Of a DNA stretch of 64,000 nucleotides, positions 17,817 through 60,126 are shown piece by piece. The notes under the pieces are model-generated. The model had not been told where the DNA came from and made no database searches. It worked only from the letters and a program-made list of their open reading frames with translations. The DNA comes from a phage, in sequence record PZ445444.1; one strand, 5' to 3'. Position numbers and translations under genes: made by a program. Every line of letters begins with the position of its first letter. Within the stretch, counting starts at the first letter, position 1.

Positions 17817-17993
17817 ATGGAAGGTAATATGATCCCCCTGGAAAATGTAGCTATTAATGACGCTGAGGCTATCGCCCTGGTTGAAAAGGCTATGGCGGGA
17901 GCGTTGGAACATAAAGAAGAGTACGAAAAAATGATGGTTAACCTGGCAGGGGCGGCGGCTGGAGAATTCTACCCAAAAAATAATTTTAACTAA
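17817..17993 (+). CDS. hypothetical small protein (58 aa)
   Basis: ATG preceded by GAAGAGGAGG; below the ORF-track length cutoff. Confidence 0.45.
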   Translation: MEGNMIPLENVAINDAEAIALVEKAMAGALEHKEEYEKMMVNLAGAAAGEFYPKNNFN

Positions 17994-19220: not shown

Positions 19221-19266
19221 TTATTTTTAGATGGCCTTGACTTCAGGGCCATCAATAAAGTAAACT
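19221..19266 (+). promoter_or_regulatory. conserved hairpin element with TTGAC in the loop, copy 1
   Basis: ttatttttagatggccttgacttcagggccatcaataaagtaaac; about 10-bp stem; possible TTGACT-N18-TAAACT promoter. Confidence 0.45.
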
Positions 19267-19298
19267 AATCCCAGTTAAGCGAAAAAGGAGGCTTGAAG

Positions 19299-19418
19299 AT
19301 GAGCACTACACGCCAACACACAAAGGTAACGATTATCGTTTGCATCATTGGTTACATCCTGGCGCAAATGTTGATGGGTAGCGCCAATGATTTCGCAAAA
19401 TTTTTCTTAGACTTTTAA
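19299..19418 (+). CDS. hypothetical small hydrophobic peptide (39 aa)
   Basis: ATG preceded by AAGGAGG; product MSTTRQHTKVTIIVCIIGYILAQMLMGSANDFAKFFLDF has a single predicted membrane helix. Confidence 0.4.
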   Translation: MSTTRQHTKVTIIVCIIGYILAQMLMGSANDFAKFFLDF

Positions 19419-19446
19419 TTGACAAGCTAACTTAAATCAGTATAAT
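19419..19446 (+). promoter_or_regulatory. sigma70 consensus promoter
   Basis: TTGACA-N16-TATAAT. Confidence 0.6.
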
Positions 19447-19498
19447 ACTAAGCACATAAACGGGAAAACTTCCCAGAACACCAAAAGGAGAAAACATT

Positions 19499-19849
19499 AT
19501 GAATACTTCCATCACTATGACCGCCGAAGAAAAAGCCCTGCAGATCGCCGCTCTGAAAAAACAGATTGCAGAACTTGAAGACAAGATCGACAATTTTGAA
19601 ATCGACGAAGACAAGTACGACGATAAATATGATGAATGGTTAGACGAGATCTACGGCGAAATCATGATCGGAAACATTTCTTTTCTTCCGTCGCGTATCC
19701 TCAAGGAGCTAGATCCTATCGCTTACCGCTGCGGATTTAGCGACTACATCGACAGCCTGGATATTGAGGACGATGAAGAATACCAGGAATTACAGACAGA
19801 GCTCGAAGAAGTGAAAGAAGAGCTTGCAGAACTGGAAGAAAACGAGTAA
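19499..19849 (+). CDS. hypothetical acidic coiled-coil protein (116 aa)
   Basis: RBS AAGGAGA; heptad-like E/K-rich segments. Confidence 0.6.
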   Translation: MNTSITMTAEEKALQIAALKKQIAELEDKIDNFEIDEDKYDDKYDEWLDEIYGEIMIGNISFLPSRILKELDPIAYRCGFSDYIDSLDIEDDEEYQELQTELEEVKEELAELEENE

Positions 19850-19851
19850 AT

Positions 19852-19898
19852 TTATTTTTAGATGGCCTTGACCCCAGGGCCATCAATAAAGTAAACTT
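19852..19898 (+). promoter_or_regulatory. conserved hairpin element, copy 2
   Basis: tttatttttagatggccttgaccccagggccatcaataaagtaaac. Confidence 0.45.
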
Positions 19899-19938
19899 TA
19901 GACTGTTAACACTTAACCAATACAGAGGAGTTAAAACC

Positions 19939-20184
19939 ATGGCAGCACTAATCACCAAATATTATGCCCCTACCAACACCAAAAGCGCCCGTATCATGGT
20001 AAAAGGCTTCGGACGTAAAAAGGTGTACACCTGGGATTATGCCTTAGACACGGAAGACAACTACACCAACGCAATGACCGATTTTATTAATGAACTAAAT
20101 AAGCAGATCTTGACAAGTTATAAAGTGACCGATATTGCTTATATAGGTGAAGGCGGGATCTGTTTTGTAGGCATTGTGAAATAG
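19939..20184 (+). CDS. hypothetical protein (81 aa)
   Basis: RBS GAGGAG upstream of ATG. Confidence 0.55.
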   Translation: MAALITKYYAPTNTKSARIMVKGFGRKKVYTWDYALDTEDNYTNAMTDFINELNKQILTSYKVTDIAYIGEGGICFVGIVK

Positions 20185-20189
20185 TTATT

Positions 20190-20235
20190 TTTTCGGTGGT
20201 CCTGGTTGCAGGGCCATCTATAAAGATAATTTATT
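20190..20235 (+). promoter_or_regulatory. conserved hairpin element, diverged copy 3
   Basis: ggtggtcctg-gttg-cagggccatc forms a 10-bp stem with wobble pairs, followed by tataaagataat. Confidence 0.4.
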
Positions 20236-20258
20236 AACACCATGAAAGGAGAAAGTAC

Positions 20259-20612
20259 ATGATCAGCGGGGCAAGTTTTATTATTGGCGCTATTGCTACG
20301 GCTTTAATTGTAAATAAGATCCAGGATAAAAAGGAAAGAGGAAGTACCGCCCTTGCAGAATATCCATTTTGGGCATTCAACGATAACGAAGATTATATTA
20401 TAAAGTATAAAAATAAAGAAGGTGACCAAGTAACACCGCGACCGATCCCGGCTTACAAAATGCAGGAAACACTATACCGCCTGGAGGCGGGAGGCGCAAA
20501 AATTGTAGACTTTTGGGGATACGACCACACAGATCAGGAAGTTATAAAGCGCCGTATCCGGGCTATTCAGGCCAATATTGAAGTTAGCAAGGGGGGAATA
20601 TATGAAGATTAA
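20259..20612 (+). CDS. hypothetical protein with N-terminal membrane helix (117 aa)
   Basis: RBS AAGGAGA; N-terminus ISGASFIIGAIATALIV. Confidence 0.55.
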   Translation: MISGASFIIGAIATALIVNKIQDKKERGSTALAEYPFWAFNDNEDYIIKYKNKEGDQVTPRPIPAYKMQETLYRLEAGGAKIVDFWGYDHTDQEVIKRRIRAIQANIEVSKGGIYED

Positions 20613-20799
20613 TTTTGAGAAGATTGTAAAGCGATCTCATGATTCCGAAGAGCTGCCGGAACGACGCCAGCGTAACAATAAACTGAATAAGCCAAAAAGA
20701 TTTGGAAAGATCTGGCGAAATCATTATGATCGTAAATTGCCTGGCCTACTTTTGGAACGTGAACGACAGGCAGAACGATACCGCCATAAAGACAAATAA
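20602..20799 (+). CDS. hypothetical basic protein (65 aa)
   Basis: ATG at 20602 after AAGGGGGGA; overlaps the upstream gene end. Confidence 0.5.
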   Translation: MKINFEKIVKRSHDSEELPERRQRNNKLNKPKRFGKIWRNHYDRKLPGLLLERERQAERYRHKDK

Positions 20800-20807
20800 C
20801 AACCAAC

Positions 20808-20834
20808 GCCCCGCCATTGTGCGGGGCTTTTTAT
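20808..20834 (+). terminator. intrinsic terminator
   Basis: gccccgc-cattgt-gcggggc followed by tttttattt. Confidence 0.7.
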
Positions 20835-20980
20835 TTCTATCCTACAAATAGCGCCCCTGGTTGGCCCTGTAAGCGCCAAAAAGGCCCCACCTATGCAATC
20901 GCCCCCCTTTAACCTGAAAACATCGCTTAGGGCCGTTTTATGGCGTTAAAAATATCATTGACAGTGATTTTATTTAAAGC

Positions 20981-21008
20981 TTGACATCTTAAACAGGTTA
21001 GCTATACT
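20981..21008 (+). promoter_or_regulatory. sigma70-like promoter (second of tandem TTGACA boxes)
   Basis: TTGACA-N16-TATACT; another TTGACA lies about 25 nt upstream. Confidence 0.6.
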
Positions 21009-21040
21009 AACCACATCAAAGAGAGAAAGGAGTAAACGCC

Positions 21041-21301
21041 ATGCGTAAATTAAAAAATTTTGATAAAGTTGATGTTGTCCTGAATAATTTTTACTACTGC
21101 AACAACAAGGCCATTTGGTGGCGTGATAGTTCCACCGATAAAGTTAAAGCTCGCTTTCTCCAAGGGCACTGGCAAGGCCGTCCAGTGATTAAAATACTGG
21201 GGCAACTGGTAGCGTTTAAAAATTGCCGCCGTGTTGATGACGTTGAAGAGATCTTGAACATTTTACGCCACAATAATTTAAAAAATAGTGTTGACAAGTA
21301 A
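21041..21301 (+). CDS. hypothetical protein (86 aa)
   Basis: RBS AAAGGAG upstream of ATG. Confidence 0.55.
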   Translation: MRKLKNFDKVDVVLNNFYYCNNKAIWWRDSSTDKVKARFLQGHWQGRPVIKILGQLVAFKNCRRVDDVEEILNILRHNNLKNSVDK

Positions 21302-21318
21302 ATCTCGATAAGTATACT
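21291..21318 (+). promoter_or_regulatory. sigma70-like promoter with GC-hairpin leader
   Basis: TTGACA-N16-TATACT, then ggcgggaa-aac-ttcccgcc hairpin. Confidence 0.6.
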
Positions 21319-21375
21319 TAAACACACAGGCGGGAAAACTTCCCGCCACTAACAAAGAAAATAGGAGAAAATATC

Positions 21376-21999
21376 ATGACCACCGTTAACATTACCACAG
21401 GTTACAATTTATCTTTCGACGTGCTGACCGACGAACAAAAAGAAAAAGCTATTGAAATGGTCCGCGAAAGAGAAGAACACAGCGGGGATAATTTTTTTGC
21501 AGAAAGTGTAATTGAACACTATAAAGAATATGTCTTTCCAGAGTACGGCCTTGAAGATACCGAAGTACGTTGGTCCGGCTTTTGGTGTCAAGGCGATGGC
21601 GCGTCAATCAGTGCTGAAAACGTGGATTTAGAAAAATTCTTGCGTAAAGTAAAGGCCCTGACCAAGTTCCGATCAATTCGTCACTTGTTCGGCACAATGC
21701 ACGATGGCGAGTTATCAGCCAGTGTTGAACGTATCCCGTTTAGCCATTATCATCACGAAAACACAATAGGAGGGTGCATCGATACTAATTGGCTAGACCT
21801 GACCACCAAGCAAGAGGACAAAGTTGAAGAGCTGGAAGAGCTGATCACCGAGACGGTACGGGAGCTATCCCGCAAGGTTTACGTAGACCTGGAGGAGGCC
21901 TATCTTGAACAGTTTACTACCGAAAACCTGATCGGCCTTATTGAAGCCAATGATTGGCGGTTTGATGTGGATGAATATGGGGAGATGAGTTTTTCATAA
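21376..21999 (+). CDS. hypothetical acidic protein (207 aa)
   Basis: RBS AGGAGA; no confident motif. Confidence 0.6.
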   Translation: MTTVNITTGYNLSFDVLTDEQKEKAIEMVREREEHSGDNFFAESVIEHYKEYVFPEYGLEDTEVRWSGFWCQGDGASISAENVDLEKFLRKVKALTKFRSIRHLFGTMHDGELSASVERIPFSHYHHENTIGGCIDTNWLDLTTKQEDKVEELEELITETVRELSRKVYVDLEEAYLEQFTTENLIGLIEANDWRFDVDEYGEMSFS

Positions 22000-22007
22000 A
22001 TAAAGTG

Positions 22008-22035
22008 TTGCAATAATCTAAAAACCTGCTATATT
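22008..22035 (+). promoter_or_regulatory. sigma70-like promoter
   Basis: TTGCAA-N16-TATATT, followed by ggggc...gcccc leader hairpin. Confidence 0.5.
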
Positions 22036-22088
22036 AAAAACTCAAGGGGCGAGATGACTTGCCCCCACAAAACAAAGAGGAAAACATC

Positions 22089-22469
22089 ATGAAAAACACT
22101 ACTAAAGCTATTGACACCGTTATGTTTAACCTGGTTACATTCCGTGAAGATATGAAAGATCTTCCACGTGAAACAGTGTGCGACCATATCGAAAACTATC
22201 GCAAACTAATCAAAGAGTTGCCTTTAAAACGTGACCAGTACGCGGCTAACGCTATGCTTAACGCCATGATCAAAAAGATGATCCAGTGTGATTTAACTCT
22301 GGCCTATGATTATGCAGGCGGTCGTTTTGCAGTATACAATCAGCCCGTGCCCGGTATGAGCACCACCGAAGAATTGCACGCGTTAAATCTGAAACAAGAT
22401 GTATGGGATAACATGCCCCGCGTGGTGGTGTGGGCAGAAAGCGGAAAGATTTACGGCGATAATTTTTAA
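22089..22469 (+). CDS. hypothetical protein (126 aa)
   Basis: ATG at 22089 after AAAGAGGAAAA. Confidence 0.55.
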   Translation: MKNTTKAIDTVMFNLVTFREDMKDLPRETVCDHIENYRKLIKELPLKRDQYAANAMLNAMIKKMIQCDLTLAYDYAGGRFAVYNQPVPGMSTTEELHALNLKQDVWDNMPRVVVWAESGKIYGDNF

Positions 22470-22533
22470 TCAGGTAACAGGCGGCATATTTGCCGCCTTA
22501 TTGTTAAACAGAACTGCAAAAGAGGTACATAGA

Positions 22534-22905
22534 ATGGAATTTATTATTTTGGCTGTAGTAGTTGCCTTGTTCAACGCCTGGATCGCTGGCAAGATGGGTA
22601 GATCCGCTTTTTTATGGTTTATTATATCTATTTTCCTGGGGGTGGTTGCAACTATTGTACTTGTTATCCTTGCAATTGTTGACAAGGGGAATAATAGAAA
22701 GGGTAAAGTATTTTCAGACCTGTACGACGCTCAAACATTTGTCAACGCCTACTACAGCGATCTTCCAGTCTCCCTACGTTGCAGCCTTGCACAACAGGTT
22801 TTCGATGAAGCTAAAACCAGAGATCACGCCCATGAGATTTGTTTAACTGAGGCGGATCGCCTATTTGAGAGGAATAGAAAATATGTGGACCAGCCGTTTA
22901 AATAA
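22534..22905 (+). CDS. hypothetical membrane protein (123 aa, two predicted helices)
   Basis: ATG at 22534 after AAGAGG; hydrophobic stretches FIILAVVVALFNAWIA and FLWFIISIFLGVVATIVLVILAIV. Confidence 0.55.
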   Translation: MEFIILAVVVALFNAWIAGKMGRSAFLWFIISIFLGVVATIVLVILAIVDKGNNRKGKVFSDLYDAQTFVNAYYSDLPVSLRCSLAQQVFDEAKTRDHAHEICLTEADRLFERNRKYVDQPFK

Positions 22906-23124
22906 TGCCACGTTAATTAACCCCTTTAGTGAAGATTTGAAGCCAGCCGCCTGGCGGGATGGATTCAATAACGAAAGCTTTATTTTCAGGCCTGATCTTA
23001 AGGAATTTTATAACAATGGATCGAACAACGACAGAGATAATTTTTCTTGTAATGTGCGTGGTGATAATACTCCTGGGGGCCATTGCAAACCACGTCACTG
23101 CTAACAGGAGGAAAGGGGGAGACG

Positions 23125-23244
23125 ATGACACCTAAGGATAAGCCCCGCACCGATAAGGCGCGCCGTGTTATGGTATGGCTTGAGATCATCGCCCTTGAAA
23201 TATTGTTAGGCGTAGGGATGTATTTTATCGCTGTAAGTAATTGA
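23125..23244 (+). CDS. hypothetical small membrane peptide (39 aa)
   Basis: ATG preceded by AGGAGGAAAGGGGGAG; hydrophobic C-terminal half. Confidence 0.35.
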   Translation: MTPKDKPRTDKARRVMVWLEIIALEILLGVGMYFIAVSN

Positions 23245-23296
23245 TAACGGCCCCGATCCCTGGGGCCTAACTTTTCAAATTTTTTTCTCCCTGAGT

Positions 23297-23325
23297 GTTG
23301 CAATCCGATCCAGAATATGGATAAT
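23297..23325 (+). promoter_or_regulatory. sigma70-like promoter
   Basis: TTGCAA-N17-ATAATA. Confidence 0.4.
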
Positions 23326-23384
23326 AACAATCAACGGGGAGACACTCCCCACCGCATAGACAAAGTTCCAAAAGGAGAAACAAA

Positions 23385-23586
23385 ATGAGCAACAATATCC
23401 GCGTTATTAACTTCAAAAAAGAAGAAAAAAATTGCCGTGCTGATTGACGGTCAAGAAATCTTTAAAGGTGATTATGAAGATCATCAAACGGCGATTAGTA
23501 TCACTCGCGTGATTGGTTACCATAATTTTTACCCTCAAGGCGCTGAGGCAGCAGTAAAACGAATTAAAGAGATTGTAGGCCTGTAA
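23385..23586 (+). pseudogene. small gene interrupted by a +1 frame change at an A7 run
   Basis: ATG 23385 after AAAGGAGAAA; frame stops at 23447 just after the A7 run at 23425-23431; a downstream frame runs uninterrupted to 23586. Removing one A gives a continuous 66-aa ORF. Confidence 0.45.
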
Positions 23587-23588
23587 AA

Positions 23589-23636
23589 TTTATTTTTAGA
23601 TGGCCTTGACTCCAGGGCCATCAATAAAGTAAATTT
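23589..23636 (+). promoter_or_regulatory. conserved hairpin element, copy 4
   Basis: tatttttagatggccttgactccagggccatcaataaagtaaat. Confidence 0.45.
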
Positions 23637-23677
23637 AAACCCTGTTAAAATAATCAGTGCAAAAAGGAGTAATGATC

Positions 23678-23977
23678 ATGTTTATCCAGGCTAATAATCT
23701 TTATTTCTTTGATGGTCAGATCGTAGACGGCGTGGAGGTGGAAATCACCGGGTGCCCTGGCGGTCAGGTTATGACTTTTCGGAATAATGCCTTTGATGAT
23801 TCTCATATCGTTATGAGAATGGAAGTTAGTAAGCTGGATGACAAGAAAACACTCATTGATTATTCCGTGAAAGATCATCCAGACTACCACATGATCTATG
23901 GTGATTTGTGCATTGTTGACCGTGACAAGGTGGGCGGCATTGTGATCGCTATTGTGAACGATGTTTTCTCAAACTAA
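23678..23977 (+). CDS. hypothetical protein (99 aa)
   Basis: ATG at 23678, 8 nt after AAGGAG. Confidence 0.55.
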   Translation: MFIQANNLYFFDGQIVDGVEVEITGCPGGQVMTFRNNAFDDSHIVMRMEVSKLDDKKTLIDYSVKDHPDYHMIYGDLCIVDRDKVGGIVIAIVNDVFSN

Positions 23978-23994
23978 TTTCAGCAGGTGATTTT

Positions 23995-24345
23995 ATGAAA
24001 GTAAAACTATATTACCTTAATGAGCTTAACCCCCTTGCCCAGGTCCGCGCCCTGGCTAATACCTTGATTTGTGAGAAATCTGTATATTGTGTTGAGCTTA
24101 ACTCCATGCGTGAACGTCTCAAAGGTGGTTACTTTGACATCCATGCTGCAATCAACGGCCTGAATATGGAATTTATCCGCTTACGTAACAGCCGCCAGAA
24201 TCTGGCAAGAATGGAACAAGATCCGGCCCACCTTCGTAAGCTGGTTATTGAAAATCATCTAATGTTTAATGCCGATGGTGATTATTACCATTTTCACCGT
24301 AAACGCTGGTACCGTAGCGGCAATATAGGAAAGAATGCAAAATAA
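23995..24345 (+). CDS. hypothetical protein (116 aa)
   Basis: ATG start; no recognisable motif. Confidence 0.55.
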   Translation: MKVKLYYLNELNPLAQVRALANTLICEKSVYCVELNSMRERLKGGYFDIHAAINGLNMEFIRLRNSRQNLARMEQDPAHLRKLVIENHLMFNADGDYYHFHRKRWYRSGNIGKNAK

Positions 24346-24382
24346 GGCCCCTGGCAGGGCCTGCAGCGATATAATCACATAA

Positions 24383-24414
24383 AGGCTATGCGGTTGCATA
24401 GCCTTTATTATTTT
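24383..24414 (+). terminator. intrinsic terminator
   Basis: aggctatgc-ggtt-gcatagcct followed by ttattatttt. Confidence 0.6.
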
Positions 24415-24463
24415 GGCGTTACAGCGGCCCCCAAGGCGCTTAAAAAAATTTTTAAAGAAGTAC

Positions 24464-24492
24464 TTGCATCAAGTCCTACAATATGGATAATA
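24464..24492 (+). promoter_or_regulatory. sigma70-like promoter (weak)
   Basis: TTGCAT-N17-ATAATA. Confidence 0.4.
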
Positions 24493-24550
24493 AAGGGTGT
24501 CGGGGGGGTGAGGCCTCCAATCATTAACCGGATAGATAGGAGTTAAAACC

Positions 24551-24835
24551 ATGGCTATTGTTACCGTTGGCGATGTAGTAGAAATGGAAGCCAAATACTT
24601 AAAAGCTGGTATGCATATCATACGGAATGATCAAGAATTGTTATTAACCATGGTTGAATATAATCCCGGTCAGGATTATCCAAGCACTGACTACTTTTTC
24701 CAGTATGTTGATGAAGAATTAAAAGAGGATGAGGCTTATCAGGGTGAATTTTGTAATTTCTTTTGCCCTGATGAGGTTGTAAAAGTTATCTATCAACCTG
24801 GCGTACCTTTCCCGCTGCACGCTATCAACAAATAA
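24551..24835 (+). CDS. hypothetical protein (94 aa)
   Basis: RBS TAGGAG upstream of ATG. Confidence 0.55.
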   Translation: MAIVTVGDVVEMEAKYLKAGMHIIRNDQELLLTMVEYNPGQDYPSTDYFFQYVDEELKEDEAYQGEFCNFFCPDEVVKVIYQPGVPFPLHAINK

Positions 24836-24890
24836 ACCTGGCGGGGCCGAAAAGGCCCCCAATTATGAAAATAAAGAGAGGCAAATCATC

Positions 24891-25124
24891 ATGATGGAAC
24901 AAATTAAACGCGCCGAGGCTATTAATGGCAACGTGATCTATTTTGTCAGCAAAAACGAAAAAGGCGTACCCTATGCGGCGGTAATAGTACAGCCTGACGG
25001 CGATTATTGGTGTACTGTGTACGGCGCTTATTCTTTTGGGCGTCCAGTGCATGATAAAATTTTGAAAGTAGCGAACCCTACCGGGAAAAATATCACAGCA
25101 GAAAAATTTTTTGAAAATAGTTGA
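24891..25124 (+). CDS. hypothetical protein (77 aa)
   Basis: RBS AAAGAGAGG upstream of ATG. Confidence 0.5.
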   Translation: MMEQIKRAEAINGNVIYFVSKNEKGVPYAAVIVQPDGDYWCTVYGAYSFGRPVHDKILKVANPTGKNITAEKFFENS

Positions 25125-25149
25125 CATGACCATATAAGACTGTAGTATA
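25121..25149 (+). promoter_or_regulatory. sigma70-like promoter with GC-hairpin leader
   Basis: TTGACA-N16/17-TAGTAT, then ggggc-aa-gcccc hairpin. Confidence 0.5.
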
Positions 25150-25195
25150 TAAATCAAAGGGGCAAGCCCCACCAACCACAAAGAGGATAAAAATC

Positions 25196-25375
25196 ATGGC
25201 TATTATTGCAAAGACTGAGATCGTAGGCTTGGATTCTATTCTCCTCGCATATGAGGAAGCTATAGAAATGTATGTGGTTTCCTATGGTGAGTATATCCGT
25301 GAATATAAATCTATTGATCTGGCTTTTGAATGTTATATTCGCCAGGTTAATAAAGCGTACGATGATTATCGTTAA
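25196..25375 (+). CDS. hypothetical small protein (59 aa)
   Basis: ATG after AAAGAGGATAAAAA; below the ORF-track cutoff. Confidence 0.45.
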   Translation: MAIIAKTEIVGLDSILLAYEEAIEMYVVSYGEYIREYKSIDLAFECYIRQVNKAYDDYR

Positions 25376-25465
25376 AATAGTTTGAAAACAAACAACCATC
25401 TTACAAAGCATAATACATAAGGCGGTGGAATGGTCCGCCACCTGGAACAAGAAGAGGAAAACAAA

Positions 25466-25570
25466 ATGAAACAGAAATTAATTGATGCGGTGATCCTGGT
25501 TATTGCCCTGGGTATTGGCCTGATTGCAACCATGGCTAATGTGATCTTGTCTTCCAACGGTATCGGGTGA
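25466..25570 (+). CDS. hypothetical small membrane peptide (34 aa)
   Basis: ATG after AGAAGAGGAAAA; product MKQKLIDAVILVIALGIGLIATMANVILSSNGIG. Confidence 0.35.
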   Translation: MKQKLIDAVILVIALGIGLIATMANVILSSNGIG

Positions 25571-25579
25571 GGTTGGCAA

Positions 25580-25795
25580 ATGATCACTAACAAAACAGGC
25601 AAAACGGAATTTTTACGCAACTTACAGATCGGCAAGCCTGAGATCTGGTATTGCACTAAAACACCACGTGACGAAATGAAAGACTTCACCGCCACGCTGC
25701 AACGGGTAAAGATATCCATCACGCAGAAAAAGGCCTTGATAGTGGTGGAAGGTGAGATCCCTCAAACCGTTGTTATAGTTGAGCGTACAGCATAG
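25580..25795 (+). CDS. hypothetical protein (71 aa)
   Basis: ATG start closely following the small peptide ORF. Confidence 0.5.
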   Translation: MITNKTGKTEFLRNLQIGKPEIWYCTKTPRDEMKDFTATLQRVKISITQKKALIVVEGEIPQTVVIVERTA

Positions 25796-25886
25796 TTTAA
25801 TTTATACCGATACCCGAAAATTAACCAACAAAGCATAAACAGGCGGTTACCGCCGCCTTAAACGTAGCAGAAAGAGGATAGACACA

Positions 25887-26171
25887 ATGAAAAAGATGAT
25901 CGCAGTGGTTGCCCTGGTTGTTGGACTTAATGCGCCTGTAATGGCTAAAGAGCTGGCAAAAGAGGTTAATCTAACGGATATTCATGCCGTCAATCGAATC
26001 GGGGTTACTTATCGCTTATGCCTTGCCGCTAAAACTTTTAAGGACGGCACGACAGAGTACTACGGATTCGAAGGTGTCCGGTGCGGTGAACTTGCTCGCG
26101 ACCTTAAGGAAGATCCAGACCTGGAGGATCTGCCCATCACCGTAAACGGGAAAACTTACGTAAACCGTTAA
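25887..26171 (+). CDS. hypothetical secreted protein (94 aa)
   Basis: RBS AAAGAGGA; N-terminal signal-peptide-like MKKMIAVVALVVGLNAPVMA. Confidence 0.55.
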   Translation: MKKMIAVVALVVGLNAPVMAKELAKEVNLTDIHAVNRIGVTYRLCLAAKTFKDGTTEYYGFEGVRCGELARDLKEDPDLEDLPITVNGKTYVNR

Positions 26172-26173
26172 CC

Positions 26174-26308
26174 ATGATAAAGATAATCATCACCTTGGGG
26201 ATTGTGGCGGGATCGCTGGCGCTCTTTCTCCTTATGGTTAGGTATGTGCTGATCGGTATTGTCCTGGTAGTCAGTGATCTATTGGAAACGGTTGGCACCT
26301 TGTTTTAA
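26174..26308 (+). CDS. hypothetical small membrane peptide (44 aa)
   Basis: ATG 2 nt after the upstream stop; product almost entirely hydrophobic. Confidence 0.35.
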   Translation: MIKIIITLGIVAGSLALFLLMVRYVLIGIVLVVSDLLETVGTLF

Positions 26309-26320
26309 AGAGCGGTAAAA

Positions 26321-30688: not shown

Positions 30689-30901
30689 TCATAGTCTACC
30701 ACCCCTGAACTCTTCGTGCTCAGGCATAATAGAGAACCAGATATCTACGATGTCCTCCCACGTCAGGTCATCAGCCTCAGGATCTGTCTGGGACGAAGAT
30801 GAAGAGTCCTCAGAATCTAAGTTTTCCTCTTTAACTGGCTCATCCAAGGGACATATGGTCACTCCTTCGGATGTCTCTTCAGATGCATGTGTGTTGATCA
30901 T
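30689..30901 (-). CDS. hypothetical acidic protein (70 aa)
   Basis: ORF in the co-directional array; highly acidic. Confidence 0.45.
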   Translation of the reverse strand: MINTHASEETSEGVTICPLDEPVKEENLDSEDSSSSSQTDPEADDLTWEDIVDIWFSIMPEHEEFRGGRL

Positions 30902-31261
30902 GTTCCACCCGTGAGTATTCCGGCAACAGCCGCTATGGAAGTAATGATCATCAGGATCACCACTAAAACTTCAGACAATGTTCTCATTGTGTATTCCATA
31001 TTCTCCAAACTGTGTGTGGATACTATCACGGGAGCGGTAATGTGTCAACAGCAACGCCGCGAGGGTTTGGTTAAAATCCGAGCGTATGGTGATTTGGGTC
31101 AAAACGGACGTGCGTTCTCGCTACGCTCGAAATATGGAGTTGTTTGTAGGGAGCTCTTAAACGCTCTGTAATGAGATTAACTACCCAAGGTATGCAATCG
31201 TGCACCAGATAAAGAAAAGGACGCCACAGAGCGTCCTAGGTGTCTTAAATTTGATATTTTG

Positions 31262-32953: not shown

Positions 32954-33042
32954 ATAAGCACCTTACTGAAATACAAGACACAGTGTTAAGGTTACTGACC
33001 AGCAAATAATTAACAGTGCCGTTGCAACCTTGGCAAGATTTA

Positions 33043-33330
33043 TCATAGTGCCTCTAAGATTTCATATCCTTCGGGTCGGAATACAAGCCACTCCGTGGCT
33101 CCGTTTGGTCGATACGCTTTATACAGAACAACCTGATCTCGGCACATGCACATAGCTACATAGTTTTCATCCACACCTGCAGCCTGCATTGCAGCTTCTT
33201 CTCCGGCAACTGCTTTGCTTACAACTTCCTTGGTAGGCAGGTGTGCGATCAGCTCGTCACCATCATTAATTCCAAAATGGCTGAGTTCGCCGTTGGTATC
33301 TTTAATCTTAATCTTAACCAGATCTTTCAT
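33043..33330 (-). CDS. small acidic protein, paralog family C (95 aa)
   Basis: MK..VKIKIK N-terminus and acidic YEILEAL-type C-terminus shared with neighbours. Confidence 0.55.
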   Translation of the reverse strand: MKDLVKIKIKDTNGELSHFGINDGDELIAHLPTKEVVSKAVAGEEAAMQAAGVDENYVAMCMCRDQVVLYKAYRPNGATEWLVFRPEGYEILEAL

Positions 33331-35433: not shown

Positions 35434-35703
35434 TTATTCCTCTACAATCTCATACACATCCGGAGTTACAATCAACTCTTCTCCGTTACCCGGTGCAACA
35501 AACACCACCATGCCTTCAGGTGTGTGCTTTTTAGCCATCTCGATAACATCTTCTCGCAGAGCTGGCTCCATCAGATCAAAACCTTCACCCAGGGCATCAC
35601 GAACCACCTTCATATAGTCAACTGGTTGTGCTTCGACAATCATACCTTCAACCAGTCCACAGTTTTTGTCTGCCAGCTCAGTTTTGAATAATTTAATTTT
35701 CAT
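35434..35703 (-). CDS. small acidic protein, paralog family C (89 aa)
   Basis: MKIKLFK... N-terminus; C-terminal VYEIVEE; RBS GAGGAG. Confidence 0.55.
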   Translation of the reverse strand: MKIKLFKTELADKNCGLVEGMIVEAQPVDYMKVVRDALGEGFDLMEPALREDVIEMAKKHTPEGMVVFVAPGNGEELIVTPDVYEIVEE

Positions 35704-35840
35704 TTAGAGGTCTCCTCAATTATTTGATATTAATAGCCGTAACCTAACACATTAACTACAACTGCGATTGCAAACATAATTTCAAAGCATGCAATCTCTA
35801 CATTTGGGACTAATTTCTTGATCACACCCATTGTAGCACC

Positions 35841-36158
35841 TCATTCTCTAAAGTCAATCTTTACTTTGCCTTTCCCCTTACCTTTCTTTCCACCGCATTT
35901 AGCCAGTTGACGTGCTGCAACATCTACCATACGGTCAGTTGCCTCGTAAGCATCACTGCCTTTAGCTTTGGCAATAACTTCTTTTCCAGAATTGTCAAAA
36001 ATGAACGCCATAACTTCCTGGTGATCATTTTCAACTTTTACACTCACACGTGCATAGTTGGCAGAGGGATGCAAACGCTCCAGCTTAGACATTTTGTGGG
36101 AAATGAAAGACACCATACCTTCAGTGATTTCTACGTTGCCAGTGATTTCAATTTGCAT
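35841..36158 (-). CDS. hpf: ribosome hibernation promoting factor / RaiA-family protein
   Basis: 105 aa; MQIEITGNVEITEGM...KLE...VKVE...G.EV.A.A.G.D.YEA.D..VD..ARQL.K aligns along its length with E. coli HPF (MQLNITGNNVEITEAL...); basic KGKGKGK tail. Confidence 0.75.
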   Translation of the reverse strand: MQIEITGNVEITEGMVSFISHKMSKLERLHPSANYARVSVKVENDHQEVMAFIFDNSGKEVIAKAKGSDAYEATDRMVDVAARQLAKCGGKKGKGKGKVKIDFRE

Positions 36159-38008: not shown

Positions 38009-38103
38009 AATTCAGCCTCGCATAGACATAATCACTATAAACAGGCAAACAATGAATCCGAATGCCACGCCACCCATAAACGTTAATATTGATGCAATCA
38101 TAG

Positions 38104-45003: not shown

Positions 45004-45354
45004 TTACTGCAACAGTTTTTCAATAGCCGCTTCCATGCTGCTTGCAACAGCCTGAACTCGGATATTCATCTCTTCTTGGTGGATCAGCTCCTTAAGCTCT
45101 TTAATGGTAAATTCTTTAGAGAAACCTTCCACCATAATCTTGTGTAAGTCTTCTTGCGTATCTACTTGCAAGAACTTTTCCAGTTTGTTGGCAGAGGCTT
45201 CTAAATCAGCTCGAATACGAGGATCATCTGTGCGATTCAGCATTAGGCGTAAGCCATCAAGATTAGTAGAAATAGCGTCTGCATGTTGAGTAACTAACCG
45301 TGGCAAAATGAGATCTACAAACTTATTAGCCAAATCGATACGTTCTTGTGTCAC
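45004..45354 (-). CDS. hypothetical protein (116 aa)
   Basis: GTG start overlapping an upstream small basic ORF. Confidence 0.5.
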   Translation of the reverse strand: MTQERIDLANKFVDLILPRLVTQHADAISTNLDGLRLMLNRTDDPRIRADLEASANKLEKFLQVDTQEDLHKIMVEGFSKEFTIKELKELIHQEEMNIRVQAVASSMEAAIEKLLQ

Positions 45355-45526
45355 TGTTGCACCCCCTCTTCATCTTCATGATGTTTCTTTTCACGCTTGT
45401 GTTTTTTCTTAAGCTCAAGCGCAATCTCTTTCTTGTACGCCTTCTTCAAGGCTTTTTTAGCCATTTGGCACCTCCTCTGCTTTCATTACGACAATTATAA
45501 CCGACTTAACAAAGCTTTGTCAACGA

Positions 45527-46232: not shown

Positions 46233-46548
46233 AAGTAACCTCTCTTCTGTGGTGCGCTTCTATTCAAGATAGACCTATAAAAGTCCATTTGATGAAGCCG
46301 TATAACTTTTTATACTTACACTTCAGTGCTAACAATTTTATCTTGATTTTCTTGATAGATTTCCGCATTTCGACCCCTTATGCTTATAAGTACTCCGCGT
46401 CGCATTCAGGACAATGCCAAATAAAATCGTCCAGTGCCTTGCACCAACGAAGATTGCAACGACAACCACACTTGCAAATTTTATAAATGCCTGATGACAT
46501 GCTGCACCTCCTTTAGTTTATACCATGTTTAAAGGTTGATATATGGCT

Positions 46549-59904: not shown

Positions 59905-60126
59905 TTAGTAAAACTGAAGAATGTCTTTTAAAGCGAAGTCACGATATTCGCCCTTGTCTACATCGAAGGCACGCATCAACCACTGCTCTTCTTTATGATA
60001 CTCTGTAGAGCCAAACCATAAATTAGGCTCAGTAACGCAGCGATCTGCAACAACACCTTTCCAGTTACGGTATTTCATCCTGATCAGAACTGAATCGCAA
60101 GGATTGAATACCTTTTTCATCCCCAT
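59905..60126 (-). CDS. hypothetical protein (73 aa)
   Basis: Short ORF. Confidence 0.4.
   Translation of the reverse strand: MGMKKVFNPCDSVLIRMKYRNWKGVVADRCVTEPNLWFGSTEYHKEEQWLMRAFDVDKGEYRDFALKDILQFY

Follow-up and report, generated by a model that had tools for sequence, protein, structure and literature searches.

Conserved small genes for probable single-helix membrane micro-proteins in a Vequintavirus genome, with a fifth of doubtful coding status

Introduction

In Escherichia coli, single-pass peptides of 30–50 aa, such as MgrB, AcrZ, MgtS, SgrT and PmrR, use their transmembrane helix to bind and modulate a larger membrane protein. The type I toxins (Hok/Gef, TisB, Ldr, Ibs, ShoB) and the 37-aa LysM protein of phage M are tiny hydrophobic single-helix peptides of the inner membrane as well, and holins usually possess two to three transmembrane domains (TMDs), or one TMD and a large periplasmic domain, with a charged C-terminal tail. 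Among phage early-gene products, Gp11 of Staphylococcus phage PhiNM1, a small membrane protein, binds the membrane-associated host proteins MurG and DivIC (PMC11237401). Here we analyze five short open reading frames (ORFs), referred to as P1 to P5, in a 64,000-nt stretch of phage DNA (sequence record PZ445444.1; "the window" means this whole stretch), which an initial annotation had described as genes for single-helix hydrophobic peptides. All five are present where that annotation placed them, at 19299-19418, 23125-23244, 25466-25570 and 26174-26308 on the plus strand and at 35730-35831 on the minus strand. Comparison with related phages indicates that P1 to P4 are almost certainly real coding genes, while the status of P5 as a coding gene is doubtful.

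The peptides resemble PhiNM1 Gp11 (PMC11237401) in that it is a small phage membrane protein, and partner binding is the type of mechanism that we propose for P1 to P4; they differ from it in that there is no sequence relationship, in that the host of Gp11 is Gram-positive, and in that the mechanism of Gp11 is experimentally established while that of P1 to P4 is deduced. The E. coli micro-proteins listed above differ from P1 to P5 in being host-encoded, and searches with Pfam and NCBIfam show no homology between the two sets.

The window belongs to a Vequintavirus (rV5-like coliphage). A 7.5-kb stretch of it, used as a query, matched 204 phage records, the best match being Escherichia phage nom (98.5% identity over the stretch searched), followed by other Vequintavirus myophages. 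The closest described counterparts of the peptides are in the rV5 genome (NC_011041), where the orthologues of P1 to P5 are ORF193/gp188, ORF181/gp176, ORF173/gp168, ORF170/gp165 and ORF145/gp140. In the paper on the rV5 genome, each of the five is entered in Table S3 as "membrane protein, 1 TMD", with lengths of 39, 39, 46, 44 and 33 aa (Kropinski et al. 2013, Virol J 10:76, PMC3606486); the same paper describes "88 mainly small ORFs" in that part of the genome, and reports 15 TMD proteins predicted by TMHMM and Phobius (PMC3606486). The rV5 orthologues agree with P1 to P5 in position, length and sequence (68–100% amino-acid identity), and gene order in the window follows rV5 ORF194-193-192, 182-181, 174-173-172, 171-170-169 and 144-145-146. 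One difference is that P3 is annotated in rV5 from an upstream ATG (46 aa), and is taken here to be 34 aa long.

The genes are also annotated in BASEL phage JohannBauhin, FV3, JES2013 and I29, the last of which labels four of them "putative membrane protein". The initial annotation had called them unannotated, which is true only of the ORF track it worked from, as the same genes are coding sequences in rV5 and other records; its remark that annotation pipelines miss such genes is borne out, P1, P4 or P5 being uncalled in many records. In PHROG, the matches of P1 to P5 (E-values in parentheses) are families 16391 (7.9e-32), 13629 (7.3e-32), 14631 (1.8e-22), 16005 (4.1e-22) and 15151 (3.7e-26), each match spanning the whole profile, and the function of all five families is unassigned there. 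P1 to P5 are already known as predicted 1-TMD proteins of rV5, and the new points of this work are curation notes: where P3 starts, that P4 is probably coupled and is dispensable, that P5 evolves atypically, and that another, sixth ORF resembles the five.

Materials and methods

Orthologues of P1 to P4 were taken from 18 related loci, and the number of relatives per gene ranged from 15 to 19. Ratios of nonsynonymous to synonymous divergence (dN/dS) are pooled Nei-Gojobori estimates, compared across six frames. The strength of Shine-Dalgarno (SD) sequences was expressed as the duplex energy with the 16S 3' end, and the larger genes of the same phage and all ATGs of the window served as references. 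Small ORFs were surveyed among the 209 ATG-initiated ORFs of 30–59 aa found in all six frames of the window.

Results

Exact conservation of length, low dN/dS and intact reading frames in relatives together indicate that P1 to P4 are under purifying selection as coding genes. Disruption in close relatives, which the initial annotation had named as the sign of a spurious ORF, was found in none of the 66 orthologue instances of P1 to P4, whereas P5 shows one nonsense codon and two start-codon losses among 13 sequences. The dN/dS values of P1 to P4 (0.15, 0.19, 0.32 and 0.45, the first two based on few substitutions, since the panel of relatives consists mostly of close kin) are for each gene the minimum among the six frames, and synonymous divergence of the four genes is normal (pS 0.11–0.39).

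Every ORF encodes one 19-residue stretch with a mean Kyte-Doolittle hydropathy of 2.1–2.8, and the view of the initial annotation that P1 to P4 encode hydrophobic single-helix peptides is supported. In all five peptides the N-terminal tail is net-positive and the C-terminal tail, 2–11 residues long, is neutral or acidic (net charge 0 to -2). Comparable hydrophobicity occurs in only 10 of the 209 small ORFs surveyed. Six of these ten lie in gaps between larger genes on the coding strand, as compared with 15 of the 199 non-hydrophobic ones (Fisher p = 8e-5), and the clustering of hydrophobic small ORFs in such gaps exceeds chance. P1 to P4 are likely inserted in the membrane.

The ribosome-binding sites are less uniform than the "good Shine-Dalgarno" sequences that had been ascribed to the peptide genes. 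Duplex energies are -11.6 kcal/mol for P1, -10.7 for P2, -9.2 for P5, -6.0 for P3 and +0.5 for P4, with reference medians of -7.4 kcal/mol for the larger genes of this phage and -2.7 for all ATGs. The description thus holds for P1, P2 and P5, which have strong sites; the site of P3 ranks no better than average, or weak, and no SD sequence precedes P4.

P1 to P4 are situated in a block of small plus-strand genes with consensus sigma-70 promoters interspersed, and consensus sigma-70 promoters and terminators flank their transcription units. Up to about 30 kb the GC skew is positive and genes are oriented along the plus strand; further on, the skew turns negative and gene orientation changes to the minus strand. 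Nine neighboring genes, scanned against Pfam and PHROG, offered no functional context except for an HPF/RaiA-like gene upstream of P5. Whole-gene gain or loss and allele swaps at gene boundaries, namely a deletion of P4, two alleles of P3 and two C-terminal alleles of P4, mark P1 to P4 as discrete modules.

P1 (19299-19418, plus strand; rV5 ORF193/gp188, phrog_16391) encodes a peptide of 39 aa, MSTTRQHTKVTIIVCIIGYILAQMLMGSANDFAKFFLDF. Its 39 codons, ATG and TAA are kept in 15 of 15 relatives, and the gene is present in 112 phage records, full length in every copy. The SD sequence AAAGGAGG (19284-19291, plus strand) lies 7 nt upstream of the ATG and is among the top 0.8% of window ATGs in duplex energy. 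Conservation of the ribosome-binding site, which the initial annotation had suggested checking, is seen in this case, with AGGAGG, GGGGG or GGGAG in the relatives. A perfect sigma-70 promoter, TTGACA-16-TATAAT (19419-19446, plus strand; 12/12 match), abuts the P1 stop codon and corresponds to the annotated rV5 promoter P192.

An intergenic hairpin/promoter-like repeat, GGCCTTGACnnCAGGGCCATCAATAAAGTAAA, is located at 19233-19264 on the plus strand, 35 nt upstream of P1, and is read by a promoter scan as TTGACT-18-TAAACT. There are three copies of this repeat in the window (19233-19264, 19864-19895 and 23602-23633, all on the plus strand), as against none expected by chance. Each consists of a short G+C hairpin with TTGAC in the loop, followed by TAAAGTAAACT, and is found just past the stop codon of a gene, about 35–60 nt ahead of the next start. 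The repeat may serve as a promoter specific to the phage, or it may combine a terminator with a promoter.

P2 (23125-23244, plus strand; rV5 ORF181/gp176, phrog_13629) also encodes 39 aa, MTPKDKPRTDKARRVMVWLEIIALEILLGVGMYFIAVSN; all 39 codons are maintained in 15 of 15 relatives, and the gene occurs in 118 records. Its transmembrane half is nearly invariant despite synonymous changes, with a single A-to-S change in phage D1, and the helix contains two glutamates. The SD region AGGAGGAAAGGGGGAG (23106-23121, plus strand) ranks in the top 1.4% of ATGs. An intrinsic terminator, consisting of the hairpin GGCCCCGATCCCTGGGGCC (23249-23267, plus strand) and a T-rich tail, begins 5 nt past the P2 stop codon, which makes P2 the last gene in its transcription unit; the hairpin is kept in relatives with compensating variants.

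Near P2, a homologue of rV5 ORF179, which has 66 aa in nom, JohannBauhin, FV3 and JES2013, is split in the window (23385-23586, plus strand). A run of seven A residues instead of six at about 23425-23431 leaves a 20-aa ORF (23385-23447) and a 49-aa remainder (23437-23586), and the extra A reflects either an error in sequencing the homopolymer or a true frameshift.

P3 (25466-25570, plus strand; rV5 ORF173/gp168, phrog_14631) encodes 34 aa, MKQKLIDAVILVIALGIGLIATMANVILSSNGIG, and has 34 codons in 19 of 19 relatives, four Phapecoctavirus included. Two alleles of about 53% identity exist, and their N-terminal halves are seemingly unrelated but of the same length and hydrophobicity. The C-terminal half, on the other hand, is conserved despite synonymous differences, with A21, T22, M23, N25, I27-S30 and G32-G34 invariant. 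The first allele is found in 71 records. The second is common to Phapecoctavirus and some Vequintavirus (FV3, C12, ECML-10), indicating recent exchange between the genera, across two phage subfamilies. In FV3, C12 and ECML-10, the module formed by P3 and the adjacent ORF172 is of the Phapecoctavirus type at near identity, with a recombination joint inside P3. Both P3 and P4 retain exact length and hydrophobicity across the two subfamilies at about 50–55% identity.

The SD sequence of P3, GAGGA (25454-25458, plus strand), lies at the weak quartile of the genes of this phage. A longer 46-aa form, which starts at the ATG at 25430, is called in rV5 and nom and has a good SD, was considered and set aside, as the upstream sequence is different in Aya, JES2013 and LL12 and contains in-frame stops there; interruption in three relatives indicates that the conserved gene is the 34-aa form. 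Nine nucleotides past the P3 stop codon begins a 71-aa gene (25580-25795, plus strand), a homologue of rV5 ORF172 (phrog_5988), whose SD sequence GGGTGAGG overlaps that stop codon. The pair is adjacent in REC and phAPEC8 too, but not in phiWec181.

P4 (26174-26308, plus strand; rV5 ORF170/gp165, phrog_16005) encodes 44 aa, MIKIIITLGIVAGSLALFLLMVRYVLIGIVLVVSDLLETVGTLF. All 17 relatives that carry the gene share its length of 44 codons (ECML-10 starting with GTG), and it is present in 163 records; identity falls to 52% in Phapecoctavirus with no change in length. At positions 2 and 19 the window's P4 carries I2 and L19, in place of the R/K2 and P19 of most relatives. The AlphaFold2 model of P4 is a single continuous helix over residues 2–43 (pLDDT 94.6). 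Directly upstream lies a gene for a 94-aa protein with a signal-peptide-like N-terminus (25887-26171, plus strand; homologue of rV5 ORF171, phrog_9845), which ends 2 nt before the P4 ATG. This gene adjoins P4 in all 17 relatives that carry P4, and in ZCKP1 and phiWec181 (Phapecoctavirus) the two overlap by ATGA. With a start 2 nt from the upstream TAA, or within an ATGA overlap, which is a classic layout for translational coupling, P4 is probably translated by coupling to the 94-aa gene.

There are two C-terminal alleles of P4, that of the window ending in LLETVGTLF and that of rV5 in VLYINSLF, and the point at which they switch coincides with a change in the downstream gene, so that it marks a mosaic joint. 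In LL12 and C12 (murica lineage) P4 is removed almost exactly, with its neighbors intact: about 142 nt (window positions 26176-26317) are replaced by about 15 nt (LL12 locus 17960-17990), and the upstream gene gains two codons. Partial tblastn coverage pointed to a possible disruption of P4 in rV5_ev158 and V18, but this was rejected, since rV5_ev158 carries an intact alternative C-terminal allele and V18 an in-frame fusion, in which an in-frame deletion joins P4 codons 1–43 to the final 20 codons of the gene that follows.

The evolution of P5 (35730-35831, minus strand; 33 aa, MGVIKKLVPNVEIACFEIMFAIAVVVNVLGYGY; rV5 ORF145/gp140, phrog_15151) is of a different kind. The ORF is found in 117 records at 90–100% identity, and an SD-like GAGGTG (35837-35842, minus strand), 5 nt upstream of the ATG, is invariant in the 13 sequences analyzed. 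These sequences span the available divergence, and were partly chosen for divergence in P5, so that the rate of disruptive changes in them is biased upward. The dN/dS of P5 is about 1.3, which gives no sign of purifying selection on a peptide. The changes are E17G, V24I, G32D, a nonsense mutation of codon 12 (Mangalyan) and losses of the start codon in rV5_ev168 (ACG) and D1 (ATA); in the latter two, codon 3 is GTG or ATG.

Synonymous sites of P5 are frozen, and the constraint thus lies on the nucleotides. Third positions of codons 13–33 are variable in 0 of 21 cases, versus 39.7% in the flanking genes (P = 2.4e-5). The ultra-conserved block has 92 nt (35704-35795, minus strand), takes in the 3' two-thirds of P5, codon 13 onward, and the spacer ahead of the ORF146 homologue (ATG at 35703), and varies at 4 of its 92 sites, versus 16.7% in flanking genes, from which about 15 would be expected (P = 3e-4). 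The flanking HPF/RaiA-like gene and ORF146 homologue are under clear purifying selection, with dN/dS values of 0.03–0.04 (nine sequences) and about 40% of third positions variable (13 sequences). A wider sliding-window scan of conservation with seven long loci added nothing, since the region of 30–36 kb is spanned by only four close relatives.

It is a serious possibility, which we stop short of calling probable, that P5 is not, or not only, a peptide gene, and that the conserved entity is an element of about 90 nt, for example a 5' leader or promoter-proximal regulator of ORF146, with the hydrophobic ORF as a by-product. Apart from the frozen third positions and the low variability of the block, this would explain why every change in P5 is nonsynonymous, nonsense or a start loss. 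A sigma-70-like site, TTGACT-16-TGcTACAAT, has a -10 element that overlaps the P5 ATG; transcription from this site would begin inside P5, with the block as the ORF146 leader. RNA folding of the block, however, is not significant on either strand (z = -0.44 and -0.50), no Rfam family matches anywhere in the window, and the window contains no second copy of the block. The peptide interpretation of P5 is favored by a start codon that is always present at codon 1 or 3 with a strong invariant SD ahead of it, and by a hydrophobicity like that of P1 to P4, in line with the 1 TMD given in rV5 Table S3; the partial selection of the 13 sequences for P5 divergence also tempers the case for a nucleotide element.

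Discussion

The best overall explanation, which we consider probable, is that P1 to P4 are accessory genes for bitopic micro-proteins that modulate membrane proteins, with P5 as a separate case. That they are specific modulators is a more tentative part of this explanation, which we would put somewhat below an even chance. In the mechanism proposed, the sigma-70 RNA polymerase of the host would transcribe P1 to P4 early in infection, a timing suggested by the promoter type, and translation would start from their own ribosome-binding sites in the case of P1 to P3, and by termination-reinitiation coupling to the 94-aa gene in the case of P4. The resulting peptides of 34–44 residues, in which a single hydrophobic helix links a short positive N-tail to a C-tail that is likewise short but neutral or acidic, would insert in the inner membrane in the N-in/C-out orientation that the positive-inside rule predicts from the tail charges. 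Through contacts between helices they would then act on membrane proteins of the host, or on phage membrane proteins expressed with them, as the analogies with PhiNM1 Gp11 and with E. coli MgrB, AcrZ and MgtS suggest, and each gene would be a dispensable, horizontally exchanged host-modulating module. A bolder version, which we think unlikely, is that P1 to P4 each bind and inhibit one particular machine of the E. coli inner membrane (for example a transporter, an enzyme of the cell wall or of division, or a defence system anchored in the membrane), with the C-terminal invariants of P3 and the glutamates of P2 as binding determinants, and that P5, separately, is a cis-regulatory element posing as a peptide gene in about 117 genomes.

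Several observations weigh against modulation of membrane proteins by P1 to P4, or against parts of the mechanism. Promoters of the sigma-70 type are found genome-wide in rV5, leaving "early" expression unproven; the dN/dS values of P1 and P2 rest on few substitutions, given the panel of close kin noted above; P4 lacks an SD sequence; and its deletion indicates that P4 is dispensable in the murica lineage. The near-invariant Pro19 of P4 in most relatives, together with a charged residue 23 (Arg or Glu), means that P4 may form a tight helical hairpin instead of one TMD, despite the single helix of the AlphaFold2 model. Homology offers little help. Scans of all the peptides against Pfam, NCBIfam and PADLOC (six peptides in the last case) gave nothing above noise, and none of the six belongs to a PADLOC anti-phage defence family. 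P4 matched only four clusters among 5.8 billion proteins, all from Vequintavirus, its profile matched only three among 1.84 billion representatives, all of 44 aa, and a sequence search of the PDB gave no match; the small number of clusters in both large searches indicates that P4 is without distant relatives and without bacterial homologues. A literature search found no transcriptomic, Ribo-seq or functional study of the P1 to P5 genes, and mass spectrometry of rV5 was limited to virion proteins (PMC3606486).

The size, hydrophobicity and predicted N-in topology of the peptides would also suit membrane-damaging or exclusion factors, either depolarizing toxin-like peptides or superinfection-exclusion peptides, since type I toxins and small exclusion proteins share these features, and accessory, exchangeable genes, as shown by the P4 deletion and the allele swaps, fit phage-phage or phage-host conflict. 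We nevertheless doubt that this is their role. The peptides match neither Hok, Ldr, TisB or Ibs nor any further family of Pfam or NCBIfam, the Fst class included among those tested, and their tails are very short, without a charged segment at the C-terminus such as many type I toxins have. An Rfam scan gave no sign of an antisense-RNA partner, no search having been aimed at an antisense promoter and terminator. Conserved polar positions, such as the invariant ones in the second half of P3, the pair of glutamates in the P2 helix and D35 of P4, favor a specific packing interface over generic insertion in the membrane. Unlike toxins and LysM, moreover, the peptides are encoded in a presumably early block of genes, in a large lytic phage with a dsDNA genome and with its own endolysin and predicted holin. 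The initial annotation also suggested that the peptides might be holin- or antiholin-like, for which the fact that small phage membrane peptides can be such lysis-timing factors and the annotation of a neighboring 123-aa membrane protein as "putative holin" in BASEL records might be cited. None of P1 to P5 shows the TMD number and charged tail of a holin or lies in a lysis cassette: the peptides have one short TMD each and lack a charged tail at the C-terminus, and the units, with their sigma-70 promoters, lie amid small genes of unassigned function. On the rV5 map the endolysin gp89 is at 71.6 kb and the predicted two-TMD putative holin gp129 at 94.1 kb, with the peptide genes at 98.5 and 108–115 kb, beside neither. 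As P4 is dispensable in addition, a role in lysis timing is highly improbable and the suggestion is not supported.

Chance ORFs, or leader-type regulatory frames in which the amino-acid sequence is irrelevant, would account for the very short length of the genes, for the position of P1 between the hairpin/promoter-like repeat and a strong promoter, and for the missing SD of P4. They would not account for dN/dS values well below 1 that are lowest in the proposed frame, for 66 orthologue instances with intact frames, for length and hydrophobicity held in alleles of about 50% identity, or for the enrichment of hydrophobic ORFs in gaps (p = 8e-5). The comparative data largely refute this explanation, and we regard the chance that it is correct as very slight.

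For curation purposes, P3 should be annotated as 34 aa and not 46, P4 as a coupled SD-less gene of the kind that many pipelines drop, P5 should not be presumed to be peptide-coding, and a sixth ORF of similar type at 30898-30999 deserves attention. Vequintaviruses are widely used as therapeutic and biocontrol phages. Should one of these micro-proteins prove to act on a particular membrane protein of the host, the very short list of characterized phage membrane micro-proteins would grow. As a discovery the genes carry little weight, being present already in the type-phage annotation and in PHROG as single-TMD proteins of unassigned function; the use of the present analysis lies in curation and in a short list for experiments.

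Additional observations

About 20 UNVERIFIED "Campylobacter phage" records (e.g. MG065655, MG065646, MG065635) have 92–95% identity to the window region. They are classed as Vequintavirus by NCBI, and their host label is probably wrong.

The sixth small hydrophobic ORF, MEYTMRTLSEVLVVILMIITSIAAVAGILTGGT (30898-30999, minus strand), was absent from the initial annotation and is one of the six found in coding-strand gaps. Its TGA overlaps, as ATGA, the start of the next gene, which encodes a 70-aa acidic protein (30689-30901), and the ORF is intact in I29, C2, LL12 and D1. In LL12 (and in rV5, as ORF162, by coordinate mapping) a 101-aa ORF is annotated that overlaps the sixth ORF in another frame, an extension that is closed in the window.

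More hydrophobic ORFs of 24–29 aa are located in coding-strand gaps on the minus strand: MINLAKVATALLIICWSVTLTLCLVFQ (32963-33046), MIASILTFMGGVAFGFIVCLFIVIMSMRG (38012-38101) and MQIAALLSLIYGLALQSIIKKSSG (59976-60050). Four relatives retain the first of these, which begins with GTG in LL12. The strongest SD sequences found, AGGAGGTG and AAGGAGGT, belong to two non-hydrophobic mini-ORFs on the minus strand, one (45351-45464) encoding a lysine-rich peptide of 37 aa and the other (46384-46500) a Cys-rich, zinc-ribbon-like peptide of 38 aa (CxCxCxC...CxxC). By its position, the former may correspond to the 37-aa rV5 ORF118.

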